Part shown: positions 2,561-41,513 of the stretch, piece by piece
How positions within the stretch are numbered: position 1 is the stretch's first letter
Layout: each line of letters opens with the position of its first letter
Assembly: GCA_026770705.1 (NCBI GenBank)
Contig: JANJGN010000004.1
Coordinates: 87,916,001 to 87,980,000, forward strand
Origin: Isurus oxyrinchus
Taxonomy: Eukaryota
Reading direction: 5' to 3'
DNA: 64,000 bases
The notes under the pieces: generated by a model
Database searches by the model: none
Told to the model about the DNA's origin: nothing
The model's input: only the letters and a program-made list of their open reading frames with translations
Made by a program: the position numbers and the translations under genes

Positions 2561-3133
2561 TAAAATACTTATCATGCTTTTTTTGATGTTTTTTGAAACC
2601 TACCTTAGTTTTCCATGAAAGGGGCAGGCACAGTTAAAACCAGGAGGCTTTTATTTTTCATGGCTAATGAAGCAGGATTGTTATCTGGACACCTTCTGGT
2701 GGCGAATAGTACGATTTTAAACTACTATATGTGAGCCAGAAGCTGTGTTTGTTTGCTGATGATTTGCAAAGAGGTTCTGTTCTCTGTAAAGGAGTACATG
2801 CCGTTGTTCCAAGAGTGAGGCAGCAATAGCCCAACCATCCCTACATTGTGACTTGGAATGAGCTGGAAAATACGTGGCATTGTCAGTAGAGCAAGAGAGA
2901 TATCTGGTGTGAGTATGAAGAAAAGATGCTGCAGCAGTAGGGAGATGGCTTGATTGAGCAGCTTCTCTTTTTATTCCTGTTGGTGTGGAATGGTTGAACC
3001 ATCAGACAGAGGGAGGGGCTTCCAACTGTCGTAAAAAAGGAGTTTGAGTTTCAGCAGACAAAGGTGTGAATGATTTCAGCAGCTGTCGTGCATTTTGTAG
3101 TTGTTTCCCCATGTCTGTCTACAAATAAGCTAT

Positions 3134-3709
3134 GGGGGCTTGGCCTAAATAGCCAAGTGGTTATGGTACTGGGTTTGGAACCCCAAAAATCAAGAGTTCA
3201 AATGTCACAAAGGCAAAACTATCAAGAGTTCAAATCTCACAATGGCAAACTATGAAACAATGTAACTTCATCTGAAACAGATGGAAACGGGTTTGTACTC
3301 GAAAGAAATCAAGAGTTCAAATCTCATAATGGTAAACTATGAAACAATGTAACTTCATCTGAAAAACAGATGGAAATGGGTTTGTACTCAAAAGAGTTAC
3401 AAATAAGCTATGGGGGCTTGGCCTAAATAGCCAAGTGGTTATGGTACTGGGTTTGTAACCCCAAGATTCAAGAGTTCAAATGTCACAATGGCAAACCATG
3501 AAACAATGTAACTTCATCTGAAACAGATGGAAATGGGTTTGTACTCGAAAGAGTTGCATCTATTTAACAAGCTTGGCCTAAATAGCCAAGTGGTTATGGT
3601 AATGGGTTTAGAATCCCAAAATCAAGAGTTCATATCTCACAATGGCAAACTATGAAACAATGTAACTTCATCTGAAACAGATGGAAACATGTTTGTACTT
3701 GAAAGAGTT
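3134..3709 (+). repeat. Array of tRNA-Thr(TGT)-derived SINE-like units: truncated unit 3134-3220, half units 3221-3307 and 3308-3398, full units 3412-3555 and 3571-3709
   Basis: A-box TAGCCAAGTGG, D-stem GCCA/TGGT, anticodon arm GGG-TTTGTAA-CCC (TGT) and B-box GAGTTCAAATC, then a body with hairpin CATCTG-AAA-CAGATG and tail TCGAAAGAGTT. Acceptor and T stems are mismatched, so this is not a functional tRNA. Confidence 0.85.
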
Positions 3710-3711
3710 AA

Positions 3712-4749
3712 ATGTTCCCCGAGCCGAAAGAAAAATTGAAAACCCAGAGGGTGGAGTGTCCGGGAGGGCTGGGAAAGGAGGAGGGGGCCTCGGAAATGGA
3801 GGTCTCCCTAGCCCCCAGCCTGACCCGGAAGAGGCGTCACGCTTCGGAGGAGGAAGTGGGCGATGCCCAAACTGAAGAAGTTGGGTGTGTCCCTTCCCCT
3901 GATGAAGAGGTGGTGGCGTCTCCACCCAGTAAAACCTCGCCCTGCCCTCTGGGAGAACCCGAAACACAAACCCCTACCACTGTTCCCCCTAACACTCTGC
4001 TGCAGTCCCCTGAACAGGGCTCCTCGGGGGTCACTGAGGGCACCTCCCTTGAGGTGGTGTCCGACTCCAGGGCACTTAATACCCCCGAGGTACTTTCTAG
4101 CTCGTCGGGGGATTGCAGGTTTGAAATTTTAAAGAATATAAATGGGTCATTGGGTGGCGGCGAAAAGGAGGGCCTTCCCGCTCCCTCCCAAACCTTGACA
4201 CCGGGCGTCCTATGTTTCGGTCAGGAGCTTGTCCTGAGCTCCCCGGACGACCCGGTGCCGGGAGGAGAGCGGGCATCAGAACTGCCGCTGCCCTCTGGCC
4301 CAAAAAGTTTCGAGGAGACCAGAGAGGACTCCTCTGGCCTTGATCCTGGGGGTGGGATCGAGGCTGAGATAGAGCCAGCTGGCAGCTCCGAATCAGCCCC
4401 CGTACTCAATGCGGGGGAGGGGTTGGAAGCTGGAGGCGACGACCCGGAAGAGGACGGGGTGTCGGTGATGAGCGTTGGGGATTACGCGGAGTCGCTCTCA
4501 GGCGAGGCGGTGGATCCCCTGGTGCCCTCCACTGACTCCCCCCTCATCCCCCCAAGGGAACTCCGGGATTTTTTGTCGGGGCACCGCGGTCGCCGAGACA
4601 GGGTTCAGTTGGCCTTGGACCGGTGGCATTCATTTCCGCTGGTGTTCTGGTCCACTCGCGAGGCTCTCAAGTCTCCTGAGTTGGATAGGAACGCGCGGCG
4701 GAGGGTCCAAACGTTTCTCGCTGGGCTCCTGAAGGAGAGGAAGGACTAA
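3712..4749 (+). pseudogene. Tx1-type ORF1, C-terminal part (acidic Pro/Ser/Glu-rich region plus basic C-terminal helical domain)
   Basis: 345-codon open frame directly upstream of ORF2, ending RELRDFL...LDRW...RRRVQTFLAGLLKERKD. No N-terminal zinc-knuckle region, consistent with truncation. Confidence 0.75.
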
Positions 4750-4805
4750 AAAGTCCTCTTCTTCTTTTTAATTACTTAAGGTGAATGTTTGATGTACCTT
4801 TGACA

Positions 4806-7800
4806 ATGAAGACGACTATAGCCAGCCTCAACATCCGCGGCAGCAGGGGCGCACAGCGCAGGTTCCAGAACTTCTCGGTCCTCAGGGACGGGAAGTATGC
4901 GTTGTGCCTCCTGCAAGAAACCCATACCGTTCCAGGAGACAAAGCCACGTGGCTCCTGGAGTGGCGAGGGGGGGTCTACATGAGTCACCTAGCCTCCAAT
5001 TCTGGCGGGGTGGCTATCTTGTTGGCCCCGCATTTTCAGCCGGAGATCTTGGGGGTCAAGGAGCTGGTGCCAGGCCGGTTGCTGCACCTGACTGTGCGTC
5101 TGGGGGGGGGGCGGTGCTTCACTTCGTGAATGTATACGCTCCCCTGGGCACGCAGCAGCAAGCGAGCTTCTTTGAAGAAGTGTCCACTCATCTCGGCTCC
5201 ATCGACGCTGGCGAGTGCATCGTCCTCGGGGGGGGATTTCAATTGCACCCTCGGGGTCCGGGACCGTCACGGTACCCCACACTGCACGCGAGGTGTGAGT
5301 AAGTTGCGGGACCTGGTCAGGTCCTTCGACTTAGTGGACGTCTGGCGAAATCGCCATCCTGACTCCAGCGTGTTCACCTTTGTGTCACCTGGAGTCGGAG
5401 CGTCCAGACTCGACCGCCTTTACATTTCAAAGGCGTACGTGTCCTGTGTTCCGGCTGCTTCTATACGGCAGGTTCCGTGCACGGACCACCATCTGGTGTG
5501 GGCGGAGCTCACTTCGTTCTGCGCTCGGACGGGGTCCGCGTACTGGCATTTTAATAACCTGTTGTTGGAAGACCAGCGGTTCCTGGACTCGATCCGTCGT
5601 TTCTGGGCCAGCTGGAGAAGGAAGCAGGGAGGCTTCCCCTCCTTGAGGCTATGGTGGGACGTGGGCAAGACTCACGTCCGAGTTTTCTGTCAAGAGTACG
5701 CGAAGGGGTCGACAAAGAGACGCAAATCCAGGGTCGAGGAGTTGGAGAAGGAGGTGCTCGACCTGGAGGCACATCTCCGTCAGCCTGATGCGGACCCGGC
5801 CCTGCGGTCGGTGTACGATGAGAAGAAGGGTGCGCTGCGGGACCTGCAACTGGTCGGGTCTCGGGGCGCGTTCGTGAGGTCGCGGATCCGGTTCCTCAGG
5901 GAGATGGACCGTGGCTCCCCCTTCTTCTACTCGCTGGAAAAAAGGCACGGGGTCCATCAGCAGCTCTTTACGCTGCTGGCCGACGACGGATCCCTTGTCT
6001 CAGATCCGGAGGGCATCAGGGCCATCGCCCGAGATTACTACACTGCCCTGTTCTCTCCGGATCCATCCAGCGAGGACGCTTGCAGAGTTTTGTGGGAGGA
6101 CCTGCCACAGGTCGGCCCGGACTGCGCCGGAAGGCTTGACTCCCCTATAAGTCTGGGGGAGCTGACTGGCGCACTCGACGGTCTTTCTAGGGGCAAATCC
6201 CCGGGACTAGACGGGCTGACCGTGGAGTTCTTCAGGACGTTCTGGGACGTCTTGGGGAGCGACTTCGCGGGGGTCCTGGGGGAGAGCATTGCTACCGGGG
6301 AGATGCCCCTTTCGTGGCGCAGGGCCGTGATTGCCGTGCTGCCGAAGAAGGGGGATCTCCGCCTTCTTAAAAACTGGCGCCCGGTCTCCCTCCTCAGCAC
6401 GGACTACAAAATCTTCGCCCGAGCCATGTCTTCCCGGCTCGGCACCGTGCTTGACCACATGATCCACCCTGACCAGTCCTACACCGTCCTGGACCAAACC
6501 ATTTATGATAATATCCATCTGGTCCGGGACATCATCCACTATTCCCAGAGGGCTGGTCTGTCGAGCGCCTTCCTGTCTCTCGATCAGGAGAAGGCGTTCG
6601 ACAGGGTGGATCACGGATACTTACTCGGAACTCTGCGAGCGTTTGGGTTCGGGACGCATTTTGTCGCCCGGATCTGACTTCTGTACACCGCCGCGGAGTG
6701 TCTATGAAGGTTAACGGGTCCCTGACGGCGCCCCTTCGCTTTGGGAGTGGGGTACGTCAGGGCTGCCCCCTGTCTGGCCAGTTGTATTCTATTTACGTGG
6801 AGCCTTTCCTGCGCCTCTTGTGGAGGAGGTTGTCGGGATTGGTCCTGCGCGGGCCGGGCATCGGGGTGGTCCTTTCAGCTTATGCCGATGACGTGCTCCT
6901 TATGTTTAGTGACCCGGCTGACCTGCGGAGGATGCGCGAGTGCCAGGAGGTCTACTCTGCTGCTTCTTCTGCCAGGATCAACTGGGGTAAATGTTCTGGA
7001 CTCCTGGTCGGTCAGTGGCAGATGGATTCCCTACCCGAGGAGCTCAGGCCTTTCACCTGGAGCAGGACCAGCCTCCTCTACCTGGGGGTCCATCTCTGCC
7101 CCGCTGAGGAATCCTGGCCGGCAAACTGGCAGGAACTGGAGACGAAAGTCACCGCTCGCCTGCGGCGCTGGACAGGACTGCTCCGAGTGCTATCTTACCG
7201 AGGTCGAGTTCTGGTCATAAACCAGCTGATCGCCGCCATGTTGTGGTATCGGCTGGTCACTTTGACCCCTCCCCCGGACTTTGTCACAAGAATCCAGAGA
7301 TTGTTAGTCGACTTCTTCTGGGACAAAAGATTGCACTGGGTCGCTGCCGAGGTTCTGAGTCTCCCGCTTAGGGAGGGCGGTCAGGCGCTAGTGTGCCTAC
7401 GCACACAGGTGGCGACTTTCCGCCTTCAAACCCTGCAGCGATACCTCTACGTCGAGCATCCTCCTAGATGGTGTGCCCTGACGACGTATTTCTTCCGTCA
7501 GGTGCACGGCCTGAATTATGACGTGCAGCTCCTGTTTATAGAACAGCTGGGCCTCGGTGGCTCCTTGCAGGCGTTGCCCATCTTTTACCAGGACCCGATC
7601 AAAGTCTGGAAAGTGGTCGCATCGTGACGCAGCTCTCCCCCGTCAGGAGTAGCGGCTATCGTCAGAGAGCGGCTGCTCAGGAATCCACTCCTCCGTCCCT
7701 TTCAGTGGTTGGCGGAGAGGAGGGCTGTGGCCGCAGGGGTGACCAGGATCGGGGACGTGCTGGGTGGCGGAGGACTGGGCTGGATGCTCCCGCAGGAGTT

Positions 7801-8698
7801 GGCGCGACGCGCGTCTGTGAGTGTCCAGGTCGCAGCCGATGCCATCCAAGACCTGAGAATGGTCGTGCTCGGACCCGACATTATTTTGTGTCTTGAGGTG
7901 GCCCAGGTGTACGGTGGTCTTCCGTCTGAACGTTCCCCTGTTCGGACGGAATTCCACATTGGCCCCAAGCCCCGAACCCTGCCTCGGGTGCTGGTGCCCC
8001 ACAATATGAGCTGCCTCGGGGACATGCCCTCCGTGCCTTTTGGCACAGCAAAGAGGGGCTTTTTGTACGGACTGCTGCCGCACACCTTCCATTTTCTCGC
8101 CCTTGTCCGCCGCCCGGACATGCCCTGGCGTGCCTTGTTGCCGTCTGGCGGCAGAGGCCCCCGATGGGAGGCCCTCTACGGAGGTGTCCTCCCCCTTTCT
8201 ATCGGGGACCTGGGTTGGAGGGTGTTGCATGCAGCAGTCCCCTATAATAAGAGGATGCATAGGTTCATGGACTCTCAGGACACGTGCCCTTTTTGCGGTC
8301 TTGTGGAGTCCGTGGAACATGTATACATAGGGTGTTGTAGGCTGCACTCCCTTTTCAGTTATTTGAAAAACCTTTTATTGATGTTTTGTTTGCACTTCAG
8401 CCCCACGCTCCTGATCTATGGGCACCCGGTGCGGAAGGGGGTCGGGAAGGAGGAGGACCTCCTCGTGAACCTGCTCCTGGGCCTGGCCAAGTTGGCCATT
8501 AACAGGTCCAGGCAGCGGGCGATCGACGGGGGAGTCCCGCCCAATTGTTTGTCCCTCTTCCGCGGCTACGTTCACTGCTGGATGTCCCTGGAGAGGGAGC
8601 ACACGGTGTCTGCTGGCACTCTCGAGGCCTTCCGTGCTCGGTGGGCACCGCGGGGACTGGGGTGTTTTGTTGACCCCTTTAATCACATTTTGATTTAA
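4806..8698 (+). pseudogene. Tx1-type ORF2 (APE endonuclease-RT-zinc finger), disrupted
   Basis: Endonuclease: MKTTIASLNIRG..LLQETH, GGDFNC, SRLDRLY, TDHH. RT: KSPGLDGL, NWRPVSLLSTDYKI, LDQEKAFDRV, GVRQGCPLSG, AYADD. Zinc finger: CPFCGLVESVEHVYIGC. Frameshifts at ~5105, ~5230 and ~6700; stops at 6675 and 7625. Confidence 0.93.
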
Positions 8699-8807
8699 TG
8701 TTTGTAAGTTTCCTTTAAACTTTGTTCTTGGTTTTACAGCTGACCTGAATTAGGGGCTGTGCCTGATTTATCCCGATTTTGTTGATTTGGTTTTCATTTA
8801 AAAGATT

Positions 8808-9384
8808 ATCAAGAGTTCAAATCTCACAATGGCAAACTATGAAACAATGTAACTTCATCTGAAACAGATGGAAACGGGTTTGTGCTCGAAAGAGTATCAA
8901 GAGTTCAAATCTCACAATGGCAAACTATGAAACAATGTAACTTCATCTGAAACAGATGGAAACGGGTTTGTACTCGAAAGAAATCAAGAGTTCAAATCTC
9001 ATAATGGTAAACTATGAAACAATGTAACTTCATCTGAAAAACAGATGGAAATGGGTTTGTACTCAAAAGAGTTACAAATAAGCTATGGGGGCTTGGCCTA
9101 AATAGCCAAGTGGTTATGGTACTGGGTTTGTAACCCCAAGATTCAAGAGTTCAAATGTCACAATGGCAAACCATGAAACAATGTAACTTCATTTGAAACA
9201 GATGGAAATGGGTTTGTACTCGAAAGAGTTGCATCTACTTAACAAGCTTGGCCTAAATAGCCAAGTTGTTATGGTAATGGGTTTAGAACCCCAAAATCAA
9301 GAGTTCATATCTCACAATGGCAAACTATGAAACAATGTAACTTCATCTGAAACAGATGGAAACATGTTTGTACTTGAAAGAGTT
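8808..9384 (+). repeat. Second array of the tRNA-Thr-derived units: halves 8808-8895, 8896-8982, 8983-9073; full units 9087-9230, 9246-9384
   Basis: 8896-9384 is nearly identical to 3221-3709 at offset 5675, including private variants (CTCATAATGGTAAA, GAAAAACAGA) and both spacers. Confidence 0.88.
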
Positions 9385-9386
9385 AA

Positions 9387-10424
9387 ATGTTCCCCGAGCC
9401 GAAAGAAAAATTGAAAACCCAGAGGGTGGAGTGTCCGGGAGGGCTGGGAAAGGAGGAGGGGGCCTTGGAAATGGAGGTCTCCCTAGCCCCCAGCCTGACC
9501 CAGAAGAGGCGTCACGCTTCGGAGGAGGAAGTGGGCGATGCCCAAACTGAAGAAGTTGGGTGTGTCCCTTCCCCTGATGAAGAGGTGGTGGCGTCTCCAC
9601 CCAGTAAAACCTCGCCCTGCCCTCTGGGAGAACCCGAAACACATACCCCTACCACTGTTCCCCCTAACACTCTGCTGCAGTCCCCTGAACAGGGCTCCTC
9701 GGGGGTCACTGAGGGCACCTCCCTTGAGGTGGTGTCTGACTCCAGGGCACTTAATACCCCCGGGGTACTTTCTAGCTCGTCGGGGGATTGCAGGTTTGAA
9801 ATTTTAAAGAATATAAATGGGTCATTGGGTGGCGGCGAAAAGGAGGGCCTTCCCGCTCCCTCCCAAACCTTGACACTGGGCGTCCTATGTTTAGGTCAGG
9901 AGCTTGTCCTGAGCTCCCCGGACGACCCAGTGCCGGGAGGAGAGCGGGCATCAGAACTGCCGCTGCCCTCTGGCCCAAAAAGTTTCGAGGAGACCAGAGA
10001 GGACTCCTCTGGCCTTGATCCTGGGGGTGGGATCGAGGCTGAGATAGAGCCAGCTGGCAGCTCCGAATCAGCCCCCGTACTCAATGCGGGGGAGGGGTCG
10101 GAAGCTGGAGGCGACGACCCGGAAGAGGACGGGGTGTCGGTGGTGAGCGTTGGGGATTACGCGGAGTAGCTCTCAGGCGAGGCGGTGGATCCCCTGGTGC
10201 CCTCCACTGACTCCCCCCTCATCCCCCCAAGGGAACTCCGGGACTTTTTGTCGGGGCACCGCGGTCGCCGAGACAGGGTTCAGTTGGCCTTGGACCGGTG
10301 GCATTCATTTCCGCTGGTGTTCTGGTCCACTCGCGAGGCTCTCAAGTCTCCTGAGTTGGATAGGAACGCGCGGCGGAGGGTCCAAACGTTTCTCGCTGGG
10401 CTCCTGAAGGAGAGGAAGGACTAA
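9387..10424 (+). pseudogene. Tx1-type ORF1 C-terminal part, copy 2 (premature TAG at 10167-10169)
   Basis: ORFs 9387-10169 and 10185-10424 are collinear with 3712-4749; TCG has become TAG. Confidence 0.75.
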
Positions 10425-10480
10425 AAAGTCCTCTTCTTCTTTTTAATTACTTAAGGTGAATGTTTGATGTACCTTTGACA

Positions 10481-13400
10481 ATGAAGACGACTATAGCCAG
10501 CCTCAACATCCGCGGCAGCAGGGGCGCACAGCGCAGGTTCCAGAACTTCTCGGTTCTCAGGGACGGGAAGTATGCGTTGTGCCTCCTGCAAGAAACCCAT
10601 ACCCTTCCGGGAGACGAAGCCACGTGGCTCCTGGAGTGGCGAGGGGGGGTCTACATGAGTCACCTAGCCTCCAATTCTGGCGGGGTGGCTATCTTGTTGG
10701 CCCCGCATTTTCAGCCGGAGATCTTGGGGGTCAAGGAGCTGGTGCCAGGCCGGTTGCTGCACCTGACTGTGCGTCTGGGGGGGGGGCGGTGCTTCACTTC
10801 GTGAATGTATACGCTCCCCTGGGCACGCAGCAGCAAGCGAGCTTCTTTGAAGAAGTGTCCACTCATCTCGGCTCCATCGACGCTGGCGAGTGCATCGTCC
10901 TCGGGGGGGATTTCAATTGCACCCTCGGGGTCCGGGACCGTCACGGTACCCCGCACTGCACGCGAGGTGTGAGTAAGTTGCGGGACCTGGTCAGGTCCTT
11001 CGACTTAGTGGACGTCTGGCAAAATCTCCATCCTGACTCCATCGTGTTCACCTTTGTGTCACCTGGAGTCGGAGCGTCCAGACTCGACCGCCTTTACGTT
11101 TCAAAGGCGTACGTGTCCTGCGTTCCGGCTGCTTCTATACGGCAGGTTCCGTGCACGGACCACCGTCTGGTGTGGGCGGAGCTCACTTCGTTCTGCGCTC
11201 GGACGGGGTCCGCGTACTGGCATTTTAATAACCTGTTGTTGGAAGACCAGCGGTTCCTGGACTCGTTCCGTCGTTTCTGGGCCAGCTGGAGAAGGAAGCA
11301 GGGAGGCTTCCCCTCCTTGAGGCTATGGTGGGACGTGGGCAAGACTCACGTCCGAGTTTTCTGTCAAGAGTACGCGAAGGGGTCGACAAAGAGACGCAAA
11401 TCCAGGGTCGAGGAGTTGGAGAAGGAGGTGCTCGACCTGGAGGCACGTCTCCGTCAGCCTGATGCGGACCCGGCCCTGCGGTCGGTGTACGATGAGAAGA
11501 AGGGCGCGCTGCGGTACCTGCAACTGGTCGGGTCTCGGGGTGCGTTCGTGAGGTCGCGGATCCGGTTCCTCAGGGAGATGGACCGTGGCTCCCCCTTCTT
11601 CTACTCGCTGGAAAAAAGGCACGGGGTCCATCAGCAGCTCTTTACGCTGCTGGCCGACGACGGATCCCTTGTCTCAGATCCGGAGGGCATCAGGGCCATC
11701 GCCCGAGATTACTACACTGCCCTGTTCTCTCCGGATACGTCCAGCGAGGACGCTTGCAGAGTTTTGTGGGAGGACCTGCCGCAGGTCGGCCCGGACTGCG
11801 CCGGAAGGCTTGACTCCCCTATAAGTCTGGGGGAGCTGACTGGCGCACTCAACGGTCTTTCTAGGGGCAAATCCCCGGGACTAGACAGGCTGACCGTGGA
11901 GTTCTTCAGGACGTTCTGGGACGTCTTGGGGAGCGACTTCGCGGGGGTCCTGGGGGAGAGTATCGCTACCGGGGAGATGCCCCTTTCGTGGTGCAGGGCC
12001 GTGATTGCCGTGCTGCCGAAGAAGGGGGATCTCCGCCTTCTTAAAAACTGGCGCCCGGTCTCCCTCCTCAGCACGGACTACAAAATCTTCGCCCGAGCCA
12101 TGTCTTCCCGGCTCGGCACCGTGCTGGACCACATGATCCACCCTGACCAGTCCTACACCGTCCCGGACCGAACCATTTATGATAATATCCATCTGGTCCG
12201 GGACATCATCCACTATTCCCAGAGGGCTGGTCTGTCGAGCACCTTCCTGTCTCTCGATCAGGAGAAGGCGTTCGACAGGGTGGATCACGGATACTTACTC
12301 GGAACTCTGCGAGCGTTTGGGTTCGGGACGCATTTTGTCGCCCGGATCTGACTTCTGTACACCGCCGCGGAGTGTCTATGAAGGTTAACGGGTCCCTGAC
12401 GGCGCCCCTTCGCTTTGGGAGTGGGGTACGTCAGGGCTGCCCCCTGTCTGGCCAGTTGTATTCTATTTGCGTGGAGCCTTTCCTGCGCCTCTTGTGGAGG
12501 AGGTTGTCGGGATTGGTCCTGCGCGGGCCGGGCATCGGGGTGGTCCTTTCAGCTTATGCCGATGACGTGCTCCTTATGTTTAGTGACCCGGCTGACCTGC
12601 GGAGGATGCGCGAGTGCCAGGAGGTCTACTCTGCCGCTTCTTCTGCCAGGATCAACTGGGGTAAATGTTCTGGACTCCTGGTCAGTCAGTGGTAGATGGA
12701 TCCCCTACCCGAGGAGCTCAGGCCTTTCACCTGGAGCAGGACCAGCCTCCTCTACCTGGGGGTCCATCTCTGCCCCGCTGAGGAATCCTGGCCGGCAAAC
12801 TGGCAGGAACTGGAGACGAAAGTCACCGCTCGCCTGCGGCGCTGGACAGGACTGCTCCGAGTGCTATCTTACCGAGGTCGAGTTCTGGTCATAAACCAGC
12901 TGATCGCCGCCATGTTGTGGTATCGGCTGGTCACTTTGACCCCTCCCCCGGACTTTGTCACAAGAATCCAGAGATTGTTAGTCGACTTCTTCTGGGACAA
13001 AAGATTGCACTGGGTCGCTGCCGAGGTTCTGAGTCTCCCGCTTAGGGAGGGCGGTCAGGCGCTAGTGTGCCTACGCACACAGGTGGCGACTTTCCACGTT
13101 CAAACCCTGCAGCGATACCTCTACGTCGAGCCTCCTCCTAGATGGTGTGCCCTGACGACGTATTTCTTCCGTCAGGTGCACGGCCTGAATTATGACGTGC
13201 AGCTCCTGTTTATAGAACAGCTGGGCCTCGGTGGCTCCTTGCAGGCGTTGCCCATCTTTTACCAGGACCCGATCAAAGTCTGGAAAGTGGTCGCATCGTG
13301 ACGCAGCTCTCCCCCGTCAGGAGTAGCGGCTATCGTCAGAGAGCGGCTGCTCAGGAATCCACCCCTCCGTCCCTTTCAGTGGTTGGCGGAGAGGAAGGCT

Positions 13401-14372
13401 GTGGCCGCAGGGGTGACCAGGATCGGGGACGTGCTGGGTGGCGGAGGACTGGGCTGGATGCTCCCGCAGGAGTTGGCGCGACGCGCGTCTGTGAGTGTCC
13501 AGGTCGCAGCCGATGCCATCCAAGACCTGAGAACGGTCGTGCTCGGACCCGACGTTATTTTGGGTCTTGAGGTGGCCCAGGTGCACGGTGGTCTTCCGTC
13601 TGAACGTTCCCCTGTTCGGACGGAATTTCACATTGGCCCCAAGCCCCGAACCCTGCCTCGGGTGCTGGTGCCCCACAATATGAGCCGCCTCGGGGACATG
13701 CCCTCCGTGCCTTTTGGCACAGCAAAGAGGGGCTTTTTGTACGGACTGCTGCCGCACACCTTCCATTTTCTCGCCCTTGTCCGCCGCCCGGACACGCCCT
13801 GGCGTGCCTTGTTGCCGTCTGGCGGCAGAGGCCCCCGATGGGAGGCCCTCTACGGAGGTGTCCTCCCCCTTTCTATCGGGGACCTGGGTTGGAGGGTGTT
13901 GCATGCAGCAGTCCCCTATAATAAGAGGATGCATAGGTTCATGGACTCTCAGGACACGTGCCCTTTTTGCGGTCTTGTGGAGTCCGTGGAACATGTATAC
14001 ATAGGGTGTTGTAGGCTGCACTCCCTTTTTAGTTATTTGAAAAACCTTTTATTGATGTTTTGTTTGCACTTCAGCCCCACGCTCCTGATCTATGGGCACC
14101 CGGTGCGGAAGGGGGTCGGGAAGGAGGAAGACCTCCTCATGAACCTGCTCCTGGGCCTGGCCAAGTTGGCCATTAACAGGTCCAGGCAGCGGGCGATCGA
14201 CGGGGGAGTCCCGCCCGATTGTTTGTCCCTCTTCCGCGGCTACGTTCGCTGCCGGATGTCCCTGGAGAGGGAGCACACGGTGTCTGCTGGCACTCTCGAG
14301 GCCTTCCGTGCTCGGTGGGCACCGCGGGGACTGGGGTGTTTTGTTGACCCCTTTAATCACATTTTGATTTAA
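10481..14372 (+). pseudogene. Tx1-type ORF2, copy 2, disrupted
   Basis: Same endonuclease, RT and zinc-finger motifs as copy 1. Shares four lesions with copy 1 and has a private TAG at 12693-12695. Confidence 0.93.
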
Positions 14373-14481
14373 AGTTTGTAAGTTTCCTTTAAACTTTGTT
14401 CTTGGTTTTGCAGCTGACCTGAATTAGGGGCTGTGCCTGATTTATCCCGATTTTGTTGATTTGGTTTTCATTTAAAAGATT

Positions 14482-14570
14482 ATCAAGAGTTCAAATCTCA
14501 CAATGGCAAACTATGAAACAATGTAACTTCATCTGAAACAGATGGAAATGGGTTTGTGCTTGAAAGAGTT
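14482..14570 (+). repeat. 3' half of the tRNA-derived unit, followed by the locus TSD ACAAATAAGCTAT (14571-14583)
   Basis: ATCAAGAGTTCAAAT...TGAAAGAGTT, then the 13-mer also seen at 3121-3133. Confidence 0.88.
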
Positions 14571-17500
14571 ACAAATAAGCTATTTCACAAAAAAAGTAGA
14601 TGGAATAACACTGAACACTGCCTCCATCACGATAAAATAAAGGAATAAGCATTGTGCAAAAAGACAGAAGTTCTGTTCAAAAAACCAAAAATAAGGATCT
14701 TTCTAATTGGCAATACCAGCCTGTCTGCCTTTCCCTAAAGACAGAAAGTGCCTAAGTGGGAGTTGTGGGATCAGTATAACACTTGGATGTGGAAATGTTC
14801 AGCAGGGTGGGCAGAATCTGGAGAGATAAACAGGATTAACATACTAAATTTTAACACTTTGATCTGCTCACAGCAGGGGAAACTGGTAGCTGGTCAGGAA
14901 CACAAAAGTTTGTGCTGTGGGTTTCTCAGTGGTTCTCTAACTGAGCCACAGCATTAGCATCCCATTGGTTTCCTAACCAATCATAGTAGACAGTCATGGT
15001 GTTGATCCAAAACTGGGTGTTGGAAATTCACTATTTTTATGAATCCTACATGGGTGTGAATGTCAAGAGAGAGCCAGCTGCCTGACAGATGGAGTGTCAG
15101 TGAAGACTGGCTGCCCCATGGTTCTCAGATGGATCCCTGGAAATCATGCTGCAGGCTCTGTTCTTCTAAAATGTGAGGAAGAAAGGTGCCGTAAAACAAT
15201 CAGACCTGGCTAGAAGTAATGTTCCCTCACTCGTGGATACAATGCCAGAAGAGGTTTAATGACCTATACATTCAAATGCAGACTTCCTCTCTATGCCTTC
15301 CCCAGCTTTCTCCTGCACATTACTCCTAAGACCAACAAACTTGTAGATGCACACATGCCTTCTTTGTCGTGACACCTTCGCACATCTCCATCTGACTGGC
15401 CACCACTAACATTCACCATCATCTTATACCCATCCCTATCAGTGACCCTCCAAAAATGTTGTCCTTCCATCCTCTTGAAACAATCCACAGCTTAAACAGC
15501 TTGATTTCTTCTTGGAGAAGATAATACAGGACAGCATGGAGAGGCAGAGAACCAGGAGTGACCCAAAGGTCATAACAACCCTGACAGCAACACAAGAGGA
15601 AGCACTAGAGAGAAGCTGAGTCTTGGTGTGCCTGGCTATTAGAAAGGTAGGGATCTTACAGTTACCTGGTAACAGAATTAAATTCAGCACTGCCAATGGC
15701 AGACTACACTCACTCACATAGATTTGATGTCACTAGCAACTGATATATGATGGTCAGCATAATGACGACTTAGAGCTTTCTTACCTTGTCAGCTCTAATT
15801 CATGTTTTTCATTTCCCACAGGTCCCAGAAGTGTTGCTGAGCAGCCAGCGTTGGAGGAGGATGAAAACCCCTCAGAGGAGGGCACTCACTCTGAGGAAGC
15901 ACCAACTCATGTGCGCCCTCCCCCATCTCAAATACACACGCCTTGGTGAAGCCACAAAAACAGGGAGTTGGATAGTCAGATGTTGAAGTGCACATCACAA
16001 ATTAGCATGGGCAGATGCTGGAAACAGCTATACAGTGAAGGGTGCACATTGACAACCCAAGCTCTGTTCAGCCGGATGCGAATGCTGAGCTTTGGGAGTC
16101 ATCAATGAAGAGGACTATTCTGACGCAGCAGCAGAAAATGTGTGAGGCTCTGTCAGCATTTCCAGCTGCACTGTGCACGATTAGAGAGAGATTGAAGGAT
16201 TCCATTTCTAGCCTGAGTTCTATGATGTCTTAGACATTCACACTGAGTCTCCATCCATGCCACCCGAATGGATCATCAGACATGGTAGTACACTGAGTAA
16301 ATGCAGGAGCTCATCAATGGCCAGCAGACTCAGACTCTACACCTTAAGCAGGATGGAGGAAATCCTCATCTTGGCCTGCCTCACTGAAGTGCAGCAGAGT
16401 GTTCACCAGCTTTTGGCTTCCAGAGGAGTGTGGGCAGGCCATGAGAGGGAAGAAGGAGAAATGACAGATGGAAGTGGGGGCTCTGCTCAAAGTGCTTCCT
16501 CTCCTCACTGCTTCCCACCACCGCGTTTCCCATTACCCAAGCCCACACCTGCCTGCTTTGTCAGAGTCTCAAATGCTATCACCTACCCAATGGCCAAGTT
16601 TGCCCCTTCACAGTTGCAGGTGGAACAGTCACAAGCTCCAAAATTACATTGGCCATGAGCATCTGAGCAGTCAGGTCAGGGAAAATGAGTAGCCTGACTC
16701 TAGCACTGATGAAGTGGTTGCACCACATAGGGGTAAAAAGAAAAGAAGGGAAAAAGATTTGTAGTTGCTTAAGTTGCTTATTGTTTAACACTTTCTTAAA
16801 TTATCACATTTCTGGTCAGTCTTTCTCAACTGTAAATTTTATTGCAAAGTTCCATTGTCCCATCCTCAGCACCTGAACCTCTGGCCAAGTGCCCTACAGT
16901 ATAGTGGAGAATGCTTTGCTGAGAGTTGAAATGGATATTGGGTCTCTGTATGTGGGACGGATTATTGATTGTGGGACTGTTTTTGCTGAGGTCTGGGGTA
17001 CAGCTGCAGTGATTTCAGATTTGGTTTGCCAGATGGCCACACTGCCTCAGGATAGCTGAATTTCACCTTAATCCTGATGCATCCAGGCATCTGAATTACA
17101 TTTCCAGCATCACAAGGGTTTACTCGATGAAGCTTCCTGTGCTCAAAATGGCTTCCATTATACCTTTCCTGAGCTTCAGTGGTAGGACCTTGAACCTGTC
17201 AGTCTTTCCTCAGGCACAATGTACTATTGGAGAGAGTGGAGAATTCTGTCTCTATCCTGTGTGTCATGACTTCTCAGGCCTTCGCACTGATGCCTGTGCC
17301 CATGGAAAGAGTGGCCACCTCCCTCCAGCACCAAAGGCAGCAATAAACCAAGTACATGCTGTCCCTGACCAATGAGCTGCAGTCAGTCTGCCAGCATAAA
17401 CAGGACGAAGGAAATAATTTCCTTGGCCATTCAATGCTCAGAGGACTTTGACCAAGAACATCTGAGCAGCCAGAGCTGGAAAACGAGCAGGCTGCCTCAA

Positions 17501-18228
17501 GCTCTACTGAAGCTAAAGTTATAGAAATGCATCAGTGCAATAGAAAAAGGAAGAGAAAGAAGTTGTACTTTGACAAGAGTAATCACTTATTGCTGTATTA
17601 AATCATCATAAACATTATTCAAATCAATATTCAGTGCTGCCCATTGTTGCCTGTCACTCGACAAGTGGTTTTCAGCCTTGAGGAAAATGGTATGTCAATA
17701 TTAGAAAATAAGCAATAGGTGTCAGTGAGAGGGATAGACTGTTGACTGTGAGACTGCTTTGTGCTGGAGGCAGGAAGCAGGGGGGAATGGGGAATGGGGG
17801 TACACTGGGTTCAGCATTGCCATGCCAATAGGCTGCACTACCTCAGATTAGTTGAAGAGTGCCAGAACGAGTATGTCCTGCACATCACTAGCTGTTAGGT
17901 GAGCGGCTGCAGGAACCCTCGCTACAGCATGTTCCTCCTCTTCCTCCTCAGCCATCTGCTGCGCCTTGCCTCTTTTGAAGATGCAGAGCAGTCAACATCT
18001 TCCTCCTCCTGCAGTTCCAGTCCTCTCTGCTGCACTATACTGTGCAAGACACACTGCACCATTATCATCCTGGCCACCTAGGCTGGTGCTACTGAACAGC
18101 GTACACAGGGACCTGAATCACATCTTCAACATCCCAATAGTTTGCTCAATGACTACCCTCGTGCTCACACAGTTCCGATAATGCCTTTTCAAGGCATCTG
18201 TGGTGGGGCTCCACATAGGTGTTGTCAT

Positions 18229-20904: not shown

Positions 20905-23902
20905 TTATCAATGTGGTTGACTCTTACATGCCCTCTGAAATGGTTTAGGAAGCCACTCAGTTGTACCAAACTGCTACAAGGTCACAAAAAAGGAACAAAA
21001 CCGGACGGACCATCCAGCATCGACCTAGGAACCAGAAACAACAATGTTAATCGCAGCCCTGTCGACCCTGCAACATCTTATTAACATCTGGGGGCTAGTG
21101 CCAAAATTGAAAGAGCTGTCTCACAGACTAGTCAAGCAACAGTCTGACATAGTCATCCTCACAGAATCATACCTTACAGATAATGTCCCAGACACCACTA
21201 TCATCATCCCTGGGTATGTCCTGTCCCACCGGCAGGACAGACCCAGCAGAGGTGGCGGCACAGTGGTATACAGTCAGGAGGGAGTTGCCCTGAGAGTCCT
21301 CAACATTGACTCTAGTCCCCATGAAGTCTCTTGGCATCAGGTCAAACATGGACAAGGAAAGCTTCTGCTGATTACCATGTACCGCCTCCCCTCAGCTGAT
21401 GACTTGGTGCTCCTCCATGTTGAACATCACTTGGAGGAGGCACTGAGGGTGTCAAGGGCACAGAATGTACTCTGGGTGGGGGACTTCAATGTCCATTACC
21501 AAGAGTGGCTAGGTAGCACCACCACAGACCGAGCTGGCCGAATCCTAAAGGATAAAGCTGCTAGACTGGGTCTGCGGCAAGTGGTGAGGGAACCAACAAG
21601 AGGGAAAAACATACTTGACCTCATCCTCACCAACTTGCCTGCCGCAGATGCATCTGTCCATGACAGTATCGGTAGGAGTGACCATCGCATAGTCGTTGTG
21701 GAGACAAAATCCCATCTTCAAATTGAGAATACCATCCATCGTGTTGTGTAGCACTACCACCATGCTAAATTAAACAGATTTCAAATAGATTTAGCAACTC
21801 AAGACTGGGCCTCCATGAGGCGCTGTGGGCCATCAGCAGCAGCAGAATTGTACTCGAACACAATATGTAACCTCATGGCCCAGCATATCCTCCACTGTAA
21901 CATTATCATCAAGCCAGGAAATCAACCTTGATTCAATGAAGAGTATAGGAAGGCATGCCAGGAGCAGCACCAGGCATACCTAAAAATGAAGTGTCAACCT
22001 GGTGAAGCTATAACACAGGACTACTTGTGTGCCAAAAAACATAAGGAACAAGTGATAGACAGAGCTAAGCGATCCCACAACCAATGGATCAGGTCTAAAC
22101 TCTGCAGTCTTGCCACATCCATTTGTGAATGGTGGTGGTCAATTAAACAACTCACTGAAGGAGGAGGCTCCACAAATATCCCCATCCTCAATGATGGAGG
22201 AGCCCAGCACATCAGTGTAAAAATAAGGCTGAAGGACTTACAACAATCTTCAGCCAGAAGTGCCGAGTGGATGATCTATCTTGGCCTCCTCCGGAGTTCC
22301 CCAGTATCACAGGCCTAGTCTTCAGCCAATTCGATTCATTCCATGTGATATCAAGAAACGGCTGATGGCACTTGATACTGCAAAGGCTACAGGCGCTGAC
22401 AATTCTCCGGCAATAGCACTGATAACTTGTGCTCCAGAGCTTGCTGCGCACCTAGCCAAGCTGTTCCAGTACAACTACAATACTGGCATCTACCTGGCTA
22501 TGTGGAAAATTGCCCAGGTATGTCCTGTGCAGAAAAAGCAGGACAAATCCAACCTGGCCAATTACCACCCCATTAGTCTATTCAAGATCATCAGTAAAGT
22601 AATGGAAGGGGGTCATTAACAGTGCTATAAAGTGGTACGTGCTTAGCAATAACCTGCTCACTGGCACCTAGTTTGGGTTCCGCCAGGGTCACTCAGCTCC
22701 TGACCTCATTACAGCCTTAGTTCAAACATGGACAAAAGAGCTGAGCTCCCGAGGTGATGTGAGGGTGATTGCCTTTGACACCAAGGCAGCATTTGACCGA
22801 GTGTGGCATCAAGGAGCCCTAGCAAAACTGGAGTCAATGGAAACCAGGAGGAAAACTCTCCACTGGTTGGAGTCATATCTAACACAAAAGAAGATGGCTG
22901 TGGTTGTTGAAGGTCAGTCATCTCAGCCCCAGAAAATCACTGCAGGAGTTCCTCAGGGTAGTGTCCTTGGCCCAACCATCTTCAGCTGCTTCATCAATGA
23001 CCTTCCTTCCATCGTCAGCGGGGATGTTTACTGAAGATTGCATAATTTTTGGCACCATTTGCGACTCCTCAGATACTGAAGCAGTTCATGTCCAAACGCA
23101 GCAGGGCCTGGACAATATCCAGGCTTGGGCTGACAAGTGGCAAATAACATTTGCACCACACAAGTGTCAGGCAATGACCATCTCCAACAAGAGAGAACCT
23201 AACCATCATTCCTTGATGTTCAATGGCATTACCATGACTGAATCCCCCACTTTCAACATCCTGGGTGTTACCATTGACCAGAAATTGAACTGGACTGGCC
23301 ATATAAATACTGTGGCTATATGAGCAGGTCAGATGCTAGGAATCGTGCGATAAGTAACTCACCTCCTGATTCCTGAAAGCCTGTCCACCATCTACAAGGC
23401 ACAAGTCAGGAGTATGGTGGAATACTCTCCATTTGCCTGGATGAGTGCAGCTCCCACAATACTCAAGAAGCTTGACACCATCCAGGACAAAGCAGCCCAC
23501 TTGATTGGCACCACATCCACAAATATTGACTCCCTCCACCATTGACGCACAGTAGCAGCAGTGTGTACCGTCTACCAGATGCACTGCAGGAACTCACCAA
23601 GGCTTCTTTGAAGCATCTTCCAAACCCACAACCACTTCCATCTAGAGGGACAAGGGCATCAGATAGTTGGCAACACCACCTCCAAGTCACTCACCACCCT
23701 GACTTGGAAGTATATTGCCATTCCTTCACTGTTGCTGGGTCAAAATCCTGGAACTCCCTTCCTAACATCACTGTGGGAGTACCTACACCACATGGACTGC
23801 AGCAGTTCAAGAAGGCTGCTCACAATCACCTTCTCAAGGGCAACTAGGGATGGGCAATAAATGCCAGTGAAGCTTACATCCTGTGAATGAATAAAAAGAA
23901 AA
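20905..23902 (+). mobile_element. Near-full-length decayed CR1-group LINE (single endonuclease-RT ORF)
   Basis: Endonuclease: IVILTESYL, WVGDFNVH, NILDLILTN, SDHRIV. RT: KATGADN, KAAFDRVWH, GVPQGSVLGP. 3' tail GGGCAATAAATG...GAATGAATAAAAAG. Many stops and frameshifts. Confidence 0.88.
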
Positions 23903-27180: not shown

Positions 27181-28989
27181 GCTGATGTAATACAAAGCAA
27201 TAGCAATACTATAATGTTCTTGGTGAGCCAACTGCACCAAACCTTGTATTTATATAAGCACACTGACACAAGAATGCGGATGACACCAGTCTTAAAATAG
27301 GTGCAATCAATGCTACCTTCAATCACCTTATTTATTTTGCTCCTTCTATCTTGGAGAGATATCAGTGAATATATTAAGCAGCAGGTCTCACTGTCACAAA
27401 GCAGCTTGTTTGACTACAAAGAAATGTGACATTTGATCTGCCAACAGTGACAGGTGTCAAACCCTGCTGGAGGCAAGCTTGTTTACCTAATGGATCCCCT
27501 GGTGTTTGAACCATGGAACAATAAGGTCTGAGCAGAGGTTATAAAGCAGCCAGGTTGGACTTCCTTTAGATCGTATTCAATGGAGGTGAAGTGTTCAAAC
27601 TGTTTGAACTGTTTGCCACATCATAGTAAGGACACAGTTAACTGCTCGTCAATGAAGGTTAAAGGTAACAAACCAGTTAGTCAGCGTGCACAGTAGAATG
27701 CACTGCTTTCATGGTCATAACTGTGGAACTCCTTACCTCCCTCACTTTTCCCCCACCCAATGTAATTTAATGCCTTTCAAAATGCAAGCTTGAGTTCATC
27801 CAACAAGTGTGTCTTGATTTACTAGGCTTGTCTCTTACTCCTGTCATTATATGTCTTCATTTTGATTTCCTGATTAAAAAAGAATCATGTTTTGATATAA
27901 CCAAGTTATTTACTTCTGAAGTCACTGTTGATGTTTCTGGCTACAAGAAGCAATAATTGTGCATCTCTGTTGCCATGAATACTACACACAGTTGCATCTT
28001 TCAAGTGTGAGGACAACAGACATTATTGCCTGGGCTTTATACACTGCTGATCACCCCTTATGGTGGTGTAATTTTGGTAGTCTATAGTGTAAACTGGAGA
28101 ACTGGTTGGTTCTGGCAGAACTCTGCTTACATTGTGCCCATTGCTGTGCTTCAGGGGTGGGGGGGCCAGAACCAGTGACAGTGGAAGCACCCACCTTAAA
28201 CAAGTGAGTGTTTCATTTAAATATTAGTTTTGGGGTGTGGCTGTCTGGCGCTCCATTTCCTGGCTGCATTCATGCGAGACGTCAGATTTAAACTATTCAA
28301 GTGTAGAATAAGCATATAAGTACACTGAAGGTCATGAAGATGATACCAGTAATATTAAGGTAAGTGTATTTAGTTATTTTGCATCTACCTTTCTTCAGTT
28401 ACTTCTTTCTTCTTTCCTGTTGCAACATAATTACAAACATCAATAGGATTTCCTTGCGAAGGAGTTTAGAAGAGGATTGAAGAAGAAATGCCAGGTAGTT
28501 CAGAATGCATACTGCCATATCAGAATATCAGCATCTACAGACAGAGCTGAATGCATCTAACTTTGGCAAGTAATTAATGCTTATTAAACAGTGTGAAACA
28601 GCTAGACATTTTCAGTCTCTCTATTTTAGTTTTCAGCATCATTTATCTATTTATCTCCATGCTGATGCCTGATACTTTTAACCTGCCCTTTAAAAAGTGA
28701 AGAAAAGTTTATTCAGGAGCACATTTTATCACCTAGTTTTATTCAGGATTGGCTTAAGATCCTGCAAATTCTATGACTGCAGGGCGGCCCAGGCATTGAG
28801 CTGGAATTGATTTCCACACTGAATTCCCTTTATTAGTGTCTGTGTTACTTGATTAGTTAATGAATCTGAGGATAGGTCACAATCTATTTTAGTATATTTA
28901 GTATATTGATTATTATATCCAACATAATGTGTGGCATTACAGCTGTGCTAAATTTAGAACAGATCTAGTAATTAATGGGCATCCATAAG

Positions 28990-29620
28990 TACCCATGAGT
29001 CATCAGCAGCAGCAGAATTGCATTCAACTATAATCTGTAACCTCCTGGACCAACAAATCCCTTATTCTACCTTTATCTTCAAGCTGGGGGATCAACCTTG
29101 GTTCAATGAATAGTGCAGGTGGGCATGCCATGGGCAGCACCAAGCTTACCTAAAAATGATGTCAACCTGGTGAAGCTACAATATAGGACTACGTACATGC
29201 CAAACAGCAGAAGCAGCATGTGTTAGACAGAGCTAAGCAATCACACAACAAATAGATGGGATCTAAGCTCTGCAGTTCTGCCACATCCAGTCAGGAATGA
29301 TGGTGGGTAATTAAACAACTAACAGGAGGAGGAAGCTCCACAAATATCCTCAACCTCAAGGATGGGGCAGTCCTGCTCATTAGTGCAAAATACAAGTCTG
29401 AAGCATTTGCAACCATCTTAGCTGGAAGTGCAGATCTTGGCCTTTGCCTGAGGTCCCCAGCATCACTGACGCCAGTCTTTGGCCAATTTGATTCACTCCA
29501 TGTGATATCAAGAAACCGCTGAAGGCACTGGATACTGTAAAGGGTATGGGCACTTACAGTATTCTGGCAGCAGCCTCTCAATCATCAGCAAAGTGATAGA
29601 GGGTCATCCTCGTTACTATC
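28990..29620 (+). mobile_element. Internal fragment of the same CR1-group family as 20905-23902
   Basis: Collinear similarity to 21830-22400 (CATCAGCAGCAGCAGAATTG..., GTCAACCTGGTGAAGCTA...). Confidence 0.8.
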
Positions 29621-37020: not shown

Positions 37021-37560
37021 CTGAGTCCAGCAGCCCTACCCTCCTACTCCCTTGGGTTAAAGGCAGAGACTTGAGAATGAATATTTACAACTTCTGTGGC
37101 ACTTAATACAACTTTTAAGCAATTGTTGAAGGGGTTGCTGTACCTCTCCAAAAGGATACCCTAGCTATCTACACAAATCTGCAAAGTTCAGACCTGCTCC
37201 TACGAGATGTTGTTTCATACTCCTAGTGCACCAAAATTGGACATGATTGGAGGCAACTGCTGATTTATATGGGCAGCTGCATCCATGAAACCCTCATGTA
37301 CGAATCACACCCCACCACATTTCCTTCTGTGTGAAAATGCTGGGGGCAGTGTTTGCAGGTTGCAGGTGGGACTTCTGGATTTTGGCCTCCTCTGCCATTT
37401 TAACAATGATGGGGAGGGTCTCATCATTGTGAAAATTCAGGCCTGAATTTGAAGGTCGCATCGCAAGTGCAACATAGCACAGACAAGGGGCCGGCACCTG
37501 GAATTCATTCAGGTTTTGGGCTCCTGACCCCACATGGAAAACCTGGCCTGGGTCTCGGAG

Positions 37561-40500: not shown

Positions 40501-41100
40501 CTGGGGTCAACAGTTGCACATTCCGCTGCCATGTCCCCCTGCCAACCCTCTGATCTTCCTGTAAGTGACAATCAGCCAATAGAAGGCAGTAGTCAGATAA
40601 AAACACCAGCTTGACGTTGGTGGATCTGACTGTGAAAGCATGGGACACAAACAGGAAGTCTATTCTGGAATGGCTGGACCCATCTGGCCGTGACCGGGTG
40701 TATCTACGCCTGTGCTCCATCTGCAGGGTTGCTGAAGATGTTGTGCAGCTTAGCATCCTTTACTGTTTCCATCAATCTGGAACATGGTGTCCAGTCTGCT
40801 GTTGGCCCTGCCGGATCGTCCAGTCGCATCAATGATGCAATTGAAGTCACCGTCCAGAATGACCGGCCTCGAAGTCGCCAGCAGCAATGGGCACTGCTGA
40901 ATGATTGCTAGCCACTCGCTGTTTTGAGCTGGGGCATACACATTAATTAACCAGAGTGGAGCATTCTTGTACAATACGTCTGCTATGAGGAGGTGCCCAC
41001 CCACCACCTCCTTAACCTTGGGGATGATGAAGTTGCCTCCCCGCAGCAGAATACCCAGGCCATAGGAACGTGAATCAGCGTGGGTCTTGGAACAGCTTTT
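37561..41100 (-). mobile_element. Older, distinct Tx1/L1-group LINE (ORF2 plus 3' UTR), decayed
   Basis: LINVYAP, ILDGDFNCII, SRIDFLF, KTPGSD, QEKVFDRVSH, VRQGCPLSP and LYMDD in ORFs 40750-41160, 40127-40756, 39718-39939 and 39073-39705; AT-rich 3' UTR with AATAAA. Confidence 0.88.
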
Positions 41101-41513
41101 GCAAGGGATTCCTAAAACTCTATTATGGTTCTGCAGTTTCCATTCCAATGCTGGCTTCATGGTGTCCGAATCATGTCTGTATCAAGGTGATAATATCATC
41201 AATCTGACAAGTGCATCAAATTCCAAGCAATGGGAGGACTTTTTAAATTTCATTTTCAAACTTTATATTTGTTATTTGTGGGAGGGACTATGGTAGGGAA
41301 TGCAAAAGCTTCTTTGATTAGGTTAACAATGATCTGACTATCCTATCGACACTTCATTAATATTAAGAATGTTAAGGGTGTTGGATTTCATCATCCAAAT
41401 ATAAACTTGACTTTAATTTATTTGCCATTCATTTAAAGTTCTGGTTTTATTTTTAAAACGTCAGCAAACATGTCTATGGAGTTATTCAAGAGCTGGCAAG
41501 TGCTTCACTCACT

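Follow-up and report, generated by a model that had tools for sequence, protein, structure and literature searches.

A tRNA-like SINE and a Tx1-like LINE that meet at a common base in a compound array of Isurus oxyrinchus

The window, which is the whole 64,000-nt stretch of Isurus oxyrinchus contig JANJGN010000004.1 analysed here, contains a SINE that is confined to one compound array (3134-14570), where it is found together with two copies of a LINE, all on the plus strand. An exact 13-bp duplication (TSD) flanks the array at 3121-3133 and 14571-14583, and the same 13-mer occurs four times in the window, always as part of the array, with two bounding and two internal copies. If H denotes the tRNA-like front part of the SINE and T the part from ATCAAG to the SINE end, the first part of the array reads TSD, H, 32 nt of T, T, T, TSD, H-T, 15-nt spacer, H-T, LINE, and the second part reads T, T, T, TSD, H-T, spacer, H-T, LINE, T, TSD. 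The left TSD copy is followed by four local G's (3134-3137), by a first SINE head with 32 nt of the 3' half (3138-3220, delimited by alignment, with an Rfam tRNA score of 17.6 bits at 3143-3215) and by two head-less 3' halves (3221-3306 and 3308-3398, also delimited by alignment), each of which starts with the ATCAAG site. An internal TSD copy lies between two SINEs at 3399-3411 and recurs at 9074-9086. Downstream of it are a full SINE unit of 140 nt (3416-3555) and, at 3556-3709, the 15-nt spacer with a second full SINE (3571-3709, by alignment) that is fused directly to the 5' end of the first LINE copy (3710-8807). A second SINE cluster (8808-9384), made up of three 3' halves from the ATCAAG site, a TSD copy and two full SINEs, leads to the second LINE copy (9385-14481). 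A last SINE 3' half (14482-14570), with its ATCAAG site directly after the LINE end, completes the array in front of the right TSD copy.

Much of this layout is repeated in a 5,675-bp tandem duplication within the array. Its two blocks, like the two LINE copies that they contain, are 98.7% identical, and CpG transitions make up 38 of the 72 differences. Given this tandem duplication, both LINE copies are treated as a single event.

Parts of the stretch are also present in 20 of the 24 public runs listed, which represent two coded organisms and one metagenome. Reads of four runs were mapped on 14200-14800 and those of the raw-read run X22 (1,887 Mb) on 9231-14497, while runs X20 and X21 were left out for their small word shares. 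Run X22 stems from organism B, which is perhaps a relative of the window's species and not necessarily the same, and its junction tables hold the best-supported rows, beyond which there are 212 joints and 1,349 loose ends. In this run, the SINE has a sharp 5' edge at 9245/9246 (723 and 2,555 reads, flank agreement 0.34-0.35) and a sharp 3' edge at 9384/9385 (2,755 reads, flank agreement 0.36), positions that are equivalent to the two edges of the unit at 3416-3555. Sharp edges combined with low flank agreement indicate a dispersed SINE family whose first base corresponds to 3416. An earlier note on this DNA, made from the sequence alone, had placed the unit at 3412-3555; the unit is indeed present, but the reads move its 5' edge to 3416 and leave the G's at 3412-3415 as a local feature. 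The depth of the SINE head in X22 (9,617) corresponds to 15,000-36,000 copies, assuming a genome of 3-7 Gb. These copies are interspersed, with many also in tandem; they exceed the number of at least 100 used by SINEBase, and the non-coding 140-nt unit is inside the SINEBase limit of <700 bp. A TSD is seen at one locus only, namely the 13 bp round the array, since the reads are too short to span both flanks elsewhere. Exact scans with 22-nt patterns gave no matches in metagenome contigs and viral contigs. A subfamily of the SINE carries five extra bases at the loop of an 8-bp hairpin described below (14536-14537), which appear as an insertion in 465 reads and as loose ends in 1,398.

The head of the SINE bears a weak likeness to a tRNA, as judged from its sequence. 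Three SINE heads align over the full length of the Rfam tRNA model with 14-19 bits (cut-off 29, E 0.5-9), and ARAGORN reported no tRNA genes. TGT (3454-3456 in the full unit) occupies the anticodon position both in the Rfam alignment and in the read consensus (7,108 reads). The label tRNA-Thr(TGT) of the earlier note is correct in this respect, but it is an anticodon reading only, and the D-arm is presumably no less like those of Arg, Ser or Leu tRNAs. The head also contains motifs at 3428-3438 and 3472-3482 that we take to be A-box-like and B-box-like, respectively, on the Pol III promoter consensus. As there is no TTTT in the unit, Pol III would be expected to read through its end. The SINE:LINE depth ratio is 41 and 35 in two contig sets guessed to be RNA vs. 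4.8 and 8.6 in DNA, a poor measure that gives no more than a hint of SINE transcription. Rfam searches up to E 10 found no U1 or U2 match in the SINE, and the ~60 nt after the tRNA-like head would leave little room for a central V or Deu domain such as those of the shark V-SINE HE1 and the DeuSINE SacSINE1, which have a CR1-type tail. The first seven bases of the unit can pair with the A-box region (3416-3436) in a predicted 7-bp hairpin, which would compete with the tRNA fold. In addition, part-length halves of ~29-37 nt, joined either to the ATCAAG site or to a head, recur in the reads, with 3189-3220 as an example in the window. They stop close to where the tRNA-like region ends on its 3' side and may represent TSDs or processed, tail-less RNAs.

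The first LINE copy comprises the 3' part of a putative ORF1 (3712-4749), a broken ORF2 (4806-8698) and a 3' UTR, and both window copies are interrupted by frameshifts and stops. ORF2 aligns to residues 1-1291 of Xenopus Tx1L with 49-50% and 44% identity over its two halves, and Tx1L is also the closest named protein in a protein search (52% identity). The alignment to Tx1L scores 577 bits, compared to 159 bits for human L1 ORF2. In a quickly built tree with 25 rows (24 of them chosen from 120 matches, without an L1 outgroup), ORF2 groups with Tx1L and with proteins of sturgeon, stingray and turtle, and a stingray protein is among its closest matches. By its ORF2 grouping and the Tx1L alignment, the LINE is thus assigned to the Tx1 clade. 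Pfam domains found in it are RVT_1 and a weak zf-RVT, and no Pfam match to an endonuclease domain was obtained in ORF2. The 345-aa open frame upstream of ORF2, the putative ORF1, is likewise without a Pfam match. The endonuclease of Tx1L itself is sequence-specific, as described in PMC1950540. The depth of the LINE family in X22 declines from ~2,950 near the 3' end to ~450-500 at the 5' edge of the window copy, which is the usual profile of 5' truncation, and the first window copy is itself probably truncated at its 5' end.

In agreement with the earlier note, neither the SINE nor the LINE has a poly(A) tail. The terminal 19 nt of the LINE (8789-8807) are in register with the SINE end and identical to it at 13-14 of 19 positions, without a gap and with the last T of the SINE set aside; most SINE-to-site junctions show this same register without the last T. 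Against a background of 97,964 19-mers, 13 and 14 matches were reached by 5 and 1, respectively. The match of 14 in 20 nt that had been read by eye was recovered from the sequence with one gap. The gapped, end-anchored score was equalled by 2 of 400 shuffles, 2 of 506 pseudo-ends and 0.28% of 98,001 window positions (p ~0.003-0.005). An unanchored local alignment of the SINE 3' part with the LINE UTR was not significant (715 of 1,000 shuffles). On these comparisons of sequence, the likeness between the two ends is real but short.

The last 46 nt of the SINE fold with a z-score of -2.07 (7 of 200 shuffles equally good) into two predicted hairpins, one of 8 bp (3513-3531) and a terminal one of 4 bp, ACTC-GAAA-GAGT (3543-3554), the latter being an addition to the earlier note. 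Read variants of the terminal hairpin have a loop of four or five A's and keep the stem (523 and 129 reads), and variants of the 8-bp hairpin carry extra bases in or beside the loop, both in the reads and at 3360-3367 in the window. Upstream hairpins had been described for both elements, and both are indeed predicted, but the stem-loop in the LINE is at chance level and does not stand out from shuffles (z -0.55 and -0.17). Homology of these two upstream hairpins is unsupported, as no sequence match was seen between them. The LINE end is predicted to form no terminal hairpin of the SINE type. Variant LINE ends were found at 14467 in 14 contigs of X1 and 2 of X15, and their ACT...AGT end is by eye closer to that of the SINE; no ATCAAG follows them in the consensus (agreement 0.70 and 0.82). 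They are a faint indication that dispersal of the SINE may be due to a sister Tx1 family, and they lend slight support to the earlier suggestion of a related partner whose tail is more like that of the SINE. The earlier note had also proposed priming by annealing between the RNA end and the target, but this is contradicted by the junctions, which retain both AAGAGT copies. For the same reason, microhomology-driven duplication via this common motif was rejected as the main route for the listed junctions.

Both elements share one insertion base, which lies inside the SINE. This common break base, G/ATCAAG, has the anticodon arm on one side and the B box on the other, and it is where the two LINE copies and each of the six head-less SINE halves in the window break, in four kinds of junction. 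The listed rows of X22 include 5,589 reads with a SINE 3' end, of which 1,569 (28%) continue into the ATCAAG site, 1,265 (23%) cross a short spacer to reach another head and 2,755 (49%) enter diverse, AT-rich flanks, where the percentages cover the listed rows only and detection differs by class. In the runs mapped on 14200-14800, at least seven junction forms on the ATCAAG site come from full SINE ends (1,761 reads) and at least five from part-length halves (213 reads). The 3' junction of the LINE also shows a target preference, a trait that many but not all Tx1 elements have, with 547 reads from ~155 start points passing from the LINE end into a SINE half at the ATCAAG site through a single joint. 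This number is ~39% of a rough expectation of 1,400 for a complete link, and the LINE-to-SINE share increases to up to ~73% when reads that overrun the end of the stretch are added. The listed rows, the smallest of which have 392 and 407 reads, include no loose end at the LINE terminus. In a multi-gigabase genome, the chance of meeting one of ~10^4 sites would be in the order of 10^-5. It could be argued that the LINE in fact targets a family of host tRNA genes and hits the SINE as a look-alike decoy, given that the insertion site is within the tRNA-like region and that small-RNA genes are among the known targets of Tx1 families (PMC4494074). This is very improbable, however, as the LINE-end reads enter the SINE's own 3' half, and there is no other common flank among the listed rows.

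The junction forms differ widely in abundance. A single one accounts for 921 of the 1,761 reads, and several spacers between SINE copies recur (79, 53, 44, and 40 reads). Such few dominant forms and recurrent spacers indicate that compound masters were amplified, so that independent events are fewer than the read counts. Taken further, the same data could reflect inherited compounds with little targeting, in which an old internal duplication of the SINE and an old LINE insertion with a SINE half were both amplified as masters, the SINE half serving as the effective tail of the LINE in the form of a read-through 3' extension. Quasi-dimeric SINEs are known (PMC3531059), and the listed rows contain no large loose-end row inside the 3' half that would mark a fixed TSD at the LINE 5' end, both of which fit such a history. 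Nevertheless, we consider it unlikely, as at least seven full-length and at least five part-length forms, together with the LINE's own end, all meet one base, and the window alone has four kinds of junction, which a single duplication does not yield. Furthermore, the native end of the LINE is in register with the SINE end at the junction. The junction counts cover the 3' side of the LINE, and individual LINE copies may have brought a SINE half with them instead of inserting into a SINE. At the 5' side, the eight bases at the SINE-LINE junction (3710-3717 and 9385-9392) are also found at the beginning of a spacer that recurs in the reads (joint 9392 to 9246, 151 reads). These bases may derive from SINE read-through RNA and not from the LINE, or may represent microhomology of a template jump.

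About half of the SINE ends are dispersed, as would also be expected if the SINE were moved by a non-Tx1 LINE (CR1, Zenon, L2, RTE, or L1) and the Tx1 LINE used it only as a safe target. The arrays would then have formed by DNA recombination between TSDs or copies, and the TSD copy inside the array, which is followed by the same four G's (3399-3415), does resemble a DNA-level duplication. TSD-(SINE-TSD)n and TSD-(SINE)n-TSD arrays have been put down to unequal recombination in PMC11481361, and the partners of the shark SINEs listed in Table 1 of PMC3747384 are of the CR1 type. Against this, the SINE ends meet the Tx1 target base intact, without a microhomology merge, and resemble the end of the Tx1 LINE. 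CR1 and L2 partners usually end in terminal short repeats, whereas such repeats are absent here and the TSD is 13 bp long. Finally, six motifs from the SINE unit and the LINE end had no matches in the CR1-group supplement of PMC13343379, a weak argument given that long cells of that file are cut. Mobilisation by a non-Tx1 LINE is therefore quite improbable in our view.

We regard it as probable that the tRNA-headed 140-nt SINE is copied by a reverse transcriptase of the Tx1 clade, and that the LINE endonuclease nicks a fixed base of the SINE where both elements land. That a dispersed SINE depends on a Tx1-clade LINE had already been proposed in the earlier note, and it is supported by the dispersed read flanks, the TSD of the array and the likeness of the 19-nt ends, but above all by the shared insertion base, which had not been stressed there. 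The starting point would be the dispersed, sharp-ended copies, with a TSD at this locus and no run of four T's. Pol III would transcribe them from the A- and B-box-like motifs and continue into neighbouring copies, yielding monomers as well as multimers. An ORF2 protein of the Tx1 clade, either the LINE's own or that of a close sister, would then recognise the last ~19 bases and the terminal hairpin. LINE and SINE ends are joined to G/ATCAAG, and the first-strand nick would be placed at this position. The SINE cDNA could subsequently pair with the identical head upstream of the nick, resulting in a net gain of one head-less half. Such pairing would hide the 5' junction and, if repeated, would give arrays of the head-half-half type. 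A template jump from LINE RNA to SINE RNA could account for the whole SINEs at the LINE 5' end, and the 5.7-kb block might later have been duplicated by unequal exchange between 3' halves. Dispersed copies and head-to-tail copies separated by spacers may result from looser nicking at sites starting with A, by the same enzyme or a sister.

Some further observations weigh against this explanation. A strictly specific endonuclease fails to explain the roughly one half of SINE ends that lie in diverse AT-rich flanks. The common tail is much shorter than the ~100 nt of the tobacco TS pair, as given in PMC3747384. In addition, the LINE end in the window is without a terminal hairpin.

SINEs are usually regarded as pure LINE parasites. 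More tentatively than for the mobilisation itself, and with somewhat less than even confidence, we propose that the two elements form a closed loop, in which a LINE of the Tx1 clade has as its main target one fixed position within a SINE mobilised by the LINE's own lineage. Tens of thousands of harmless sites would be seeded by the SINE, insertions of the LINE and of further SINE copies would separate the A box from the B box, and the pair would have in common no more than a 19-nt end that includes a 4-bp hairpin. If a site-specific LINE does target its own SINE, the relation is reciprocal and the SINE makes safe sites, while insertion into the SINE promoter region could in turn limit the SINE. 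If true, the 19-nt end with its four-base-pair hairpin would be among the smallest recognition tails known. The SINE would also be a Tx1 partner that has a tRNA-like head, no poly(A) and a tail that is a candidate for the minimum required, and the template and target choice of Tx1-clade proteins could then be tested with a 19-nt tail and one target site.

Individual parts of this proposal are already known, including Tx1-mobilised short elements, Tx1 targeting of transposons, self-targeting LINEs and tandem SINE arrays. In crocodilians, SINEU-1/2/3 were assigned to Tx1-Mar by their common target (Kojima 2015, PMC4494074), and that system is similar to ours in having short elements with a Tx1 partner, tandem copies around a TSD and small-RNA heads at LINE 5' ends. 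SINEU elements have U1/U2 heads, a poly(A) tail and a third element, Mariner-N4_AMi, as target, and no tail in common with the LINE was found. In contrast, the present SINE has a tRNA-like head, lacks poly(A), is LINE-like in its last 19 nt and is itself the target. Site-specific insertion into another mobile element is also described for Xenopus Tx1L in Tx1D (PMC4494074, PMC1950540). As far as these sources tell, however, Tx1D, a DNA transposon, does not rely on Tx1L to spread, whereas the present target probably relies on the enzyme of the LINE itself. The Zepp and Zepp-like L1 elements of green algae (PMC8226300) likewise insert into copies that are already present, building nested arrays rich in 3' ends. 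Zepp is described there as an autonomous, self-targeting LINE with one cluster per chromosome, and no SINE figures in that part of the account. The layouts TSD-(SINE-TSD)n and TSD-(SINE)n-TSD recall the SINE arrays of the blood clam (PMC11481361), but these were ascribed to unequal recombination, the term 'Tx1' occurs 0 times in that text, and its passages on the arrays describe no LINE at the same base. The stringent pairs ZfL2-1/ZfL2-2 (PMC4176376) and shark HE1/HER1 (PMC3747384, Table 1) likewise lack poly(A) and, as is probable for the present SINE too, work through an RNA hairpin that is recognised at the 3' end. Their partners are L2 or CR1 elements, however, and the stretch in common is much shorter in the present case. 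None of the SINE partners in Table 1 of PMC3747384 is named Tx1. A LINE that targets the SINE it mobilises was not found in open-access full texts; Repbase, Dfam and most subscription papers (e.g. Kojima and Fujiwara 2004) fall outside this scope, and both the SINE and the LINE family may already have been named.

The remainder of the window contains further repeats. A second, decayed L1/Tx1-like LINE at ~37,560-41,200 on the minus strand is ~34% identical to Tx1L; it was rejected as a source of the SINE tail, as its A/T-rich end is, by eye, unlike that of the SINE. Three related LINE fragments (21029-23900, 28976-29569, and 59529-61160) are ~73%-77% alike, the first of them with an endonuclease domain, and give the impression of being CR1-like. 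Older related repeats at 91-1141 and 16275-18152, ~65% alike, lie on either side of the array, and a Pfam scan of 13 of the 29 listed ORFs detected no transposase in the ORFs of the array flanks. Finally, a 34-bp minisatellite with ~175 copies and 69% matches extends over 42432-48353, and a G-rich tandem repeat of 30/60 bp occupies 62751-62960 with seven units.
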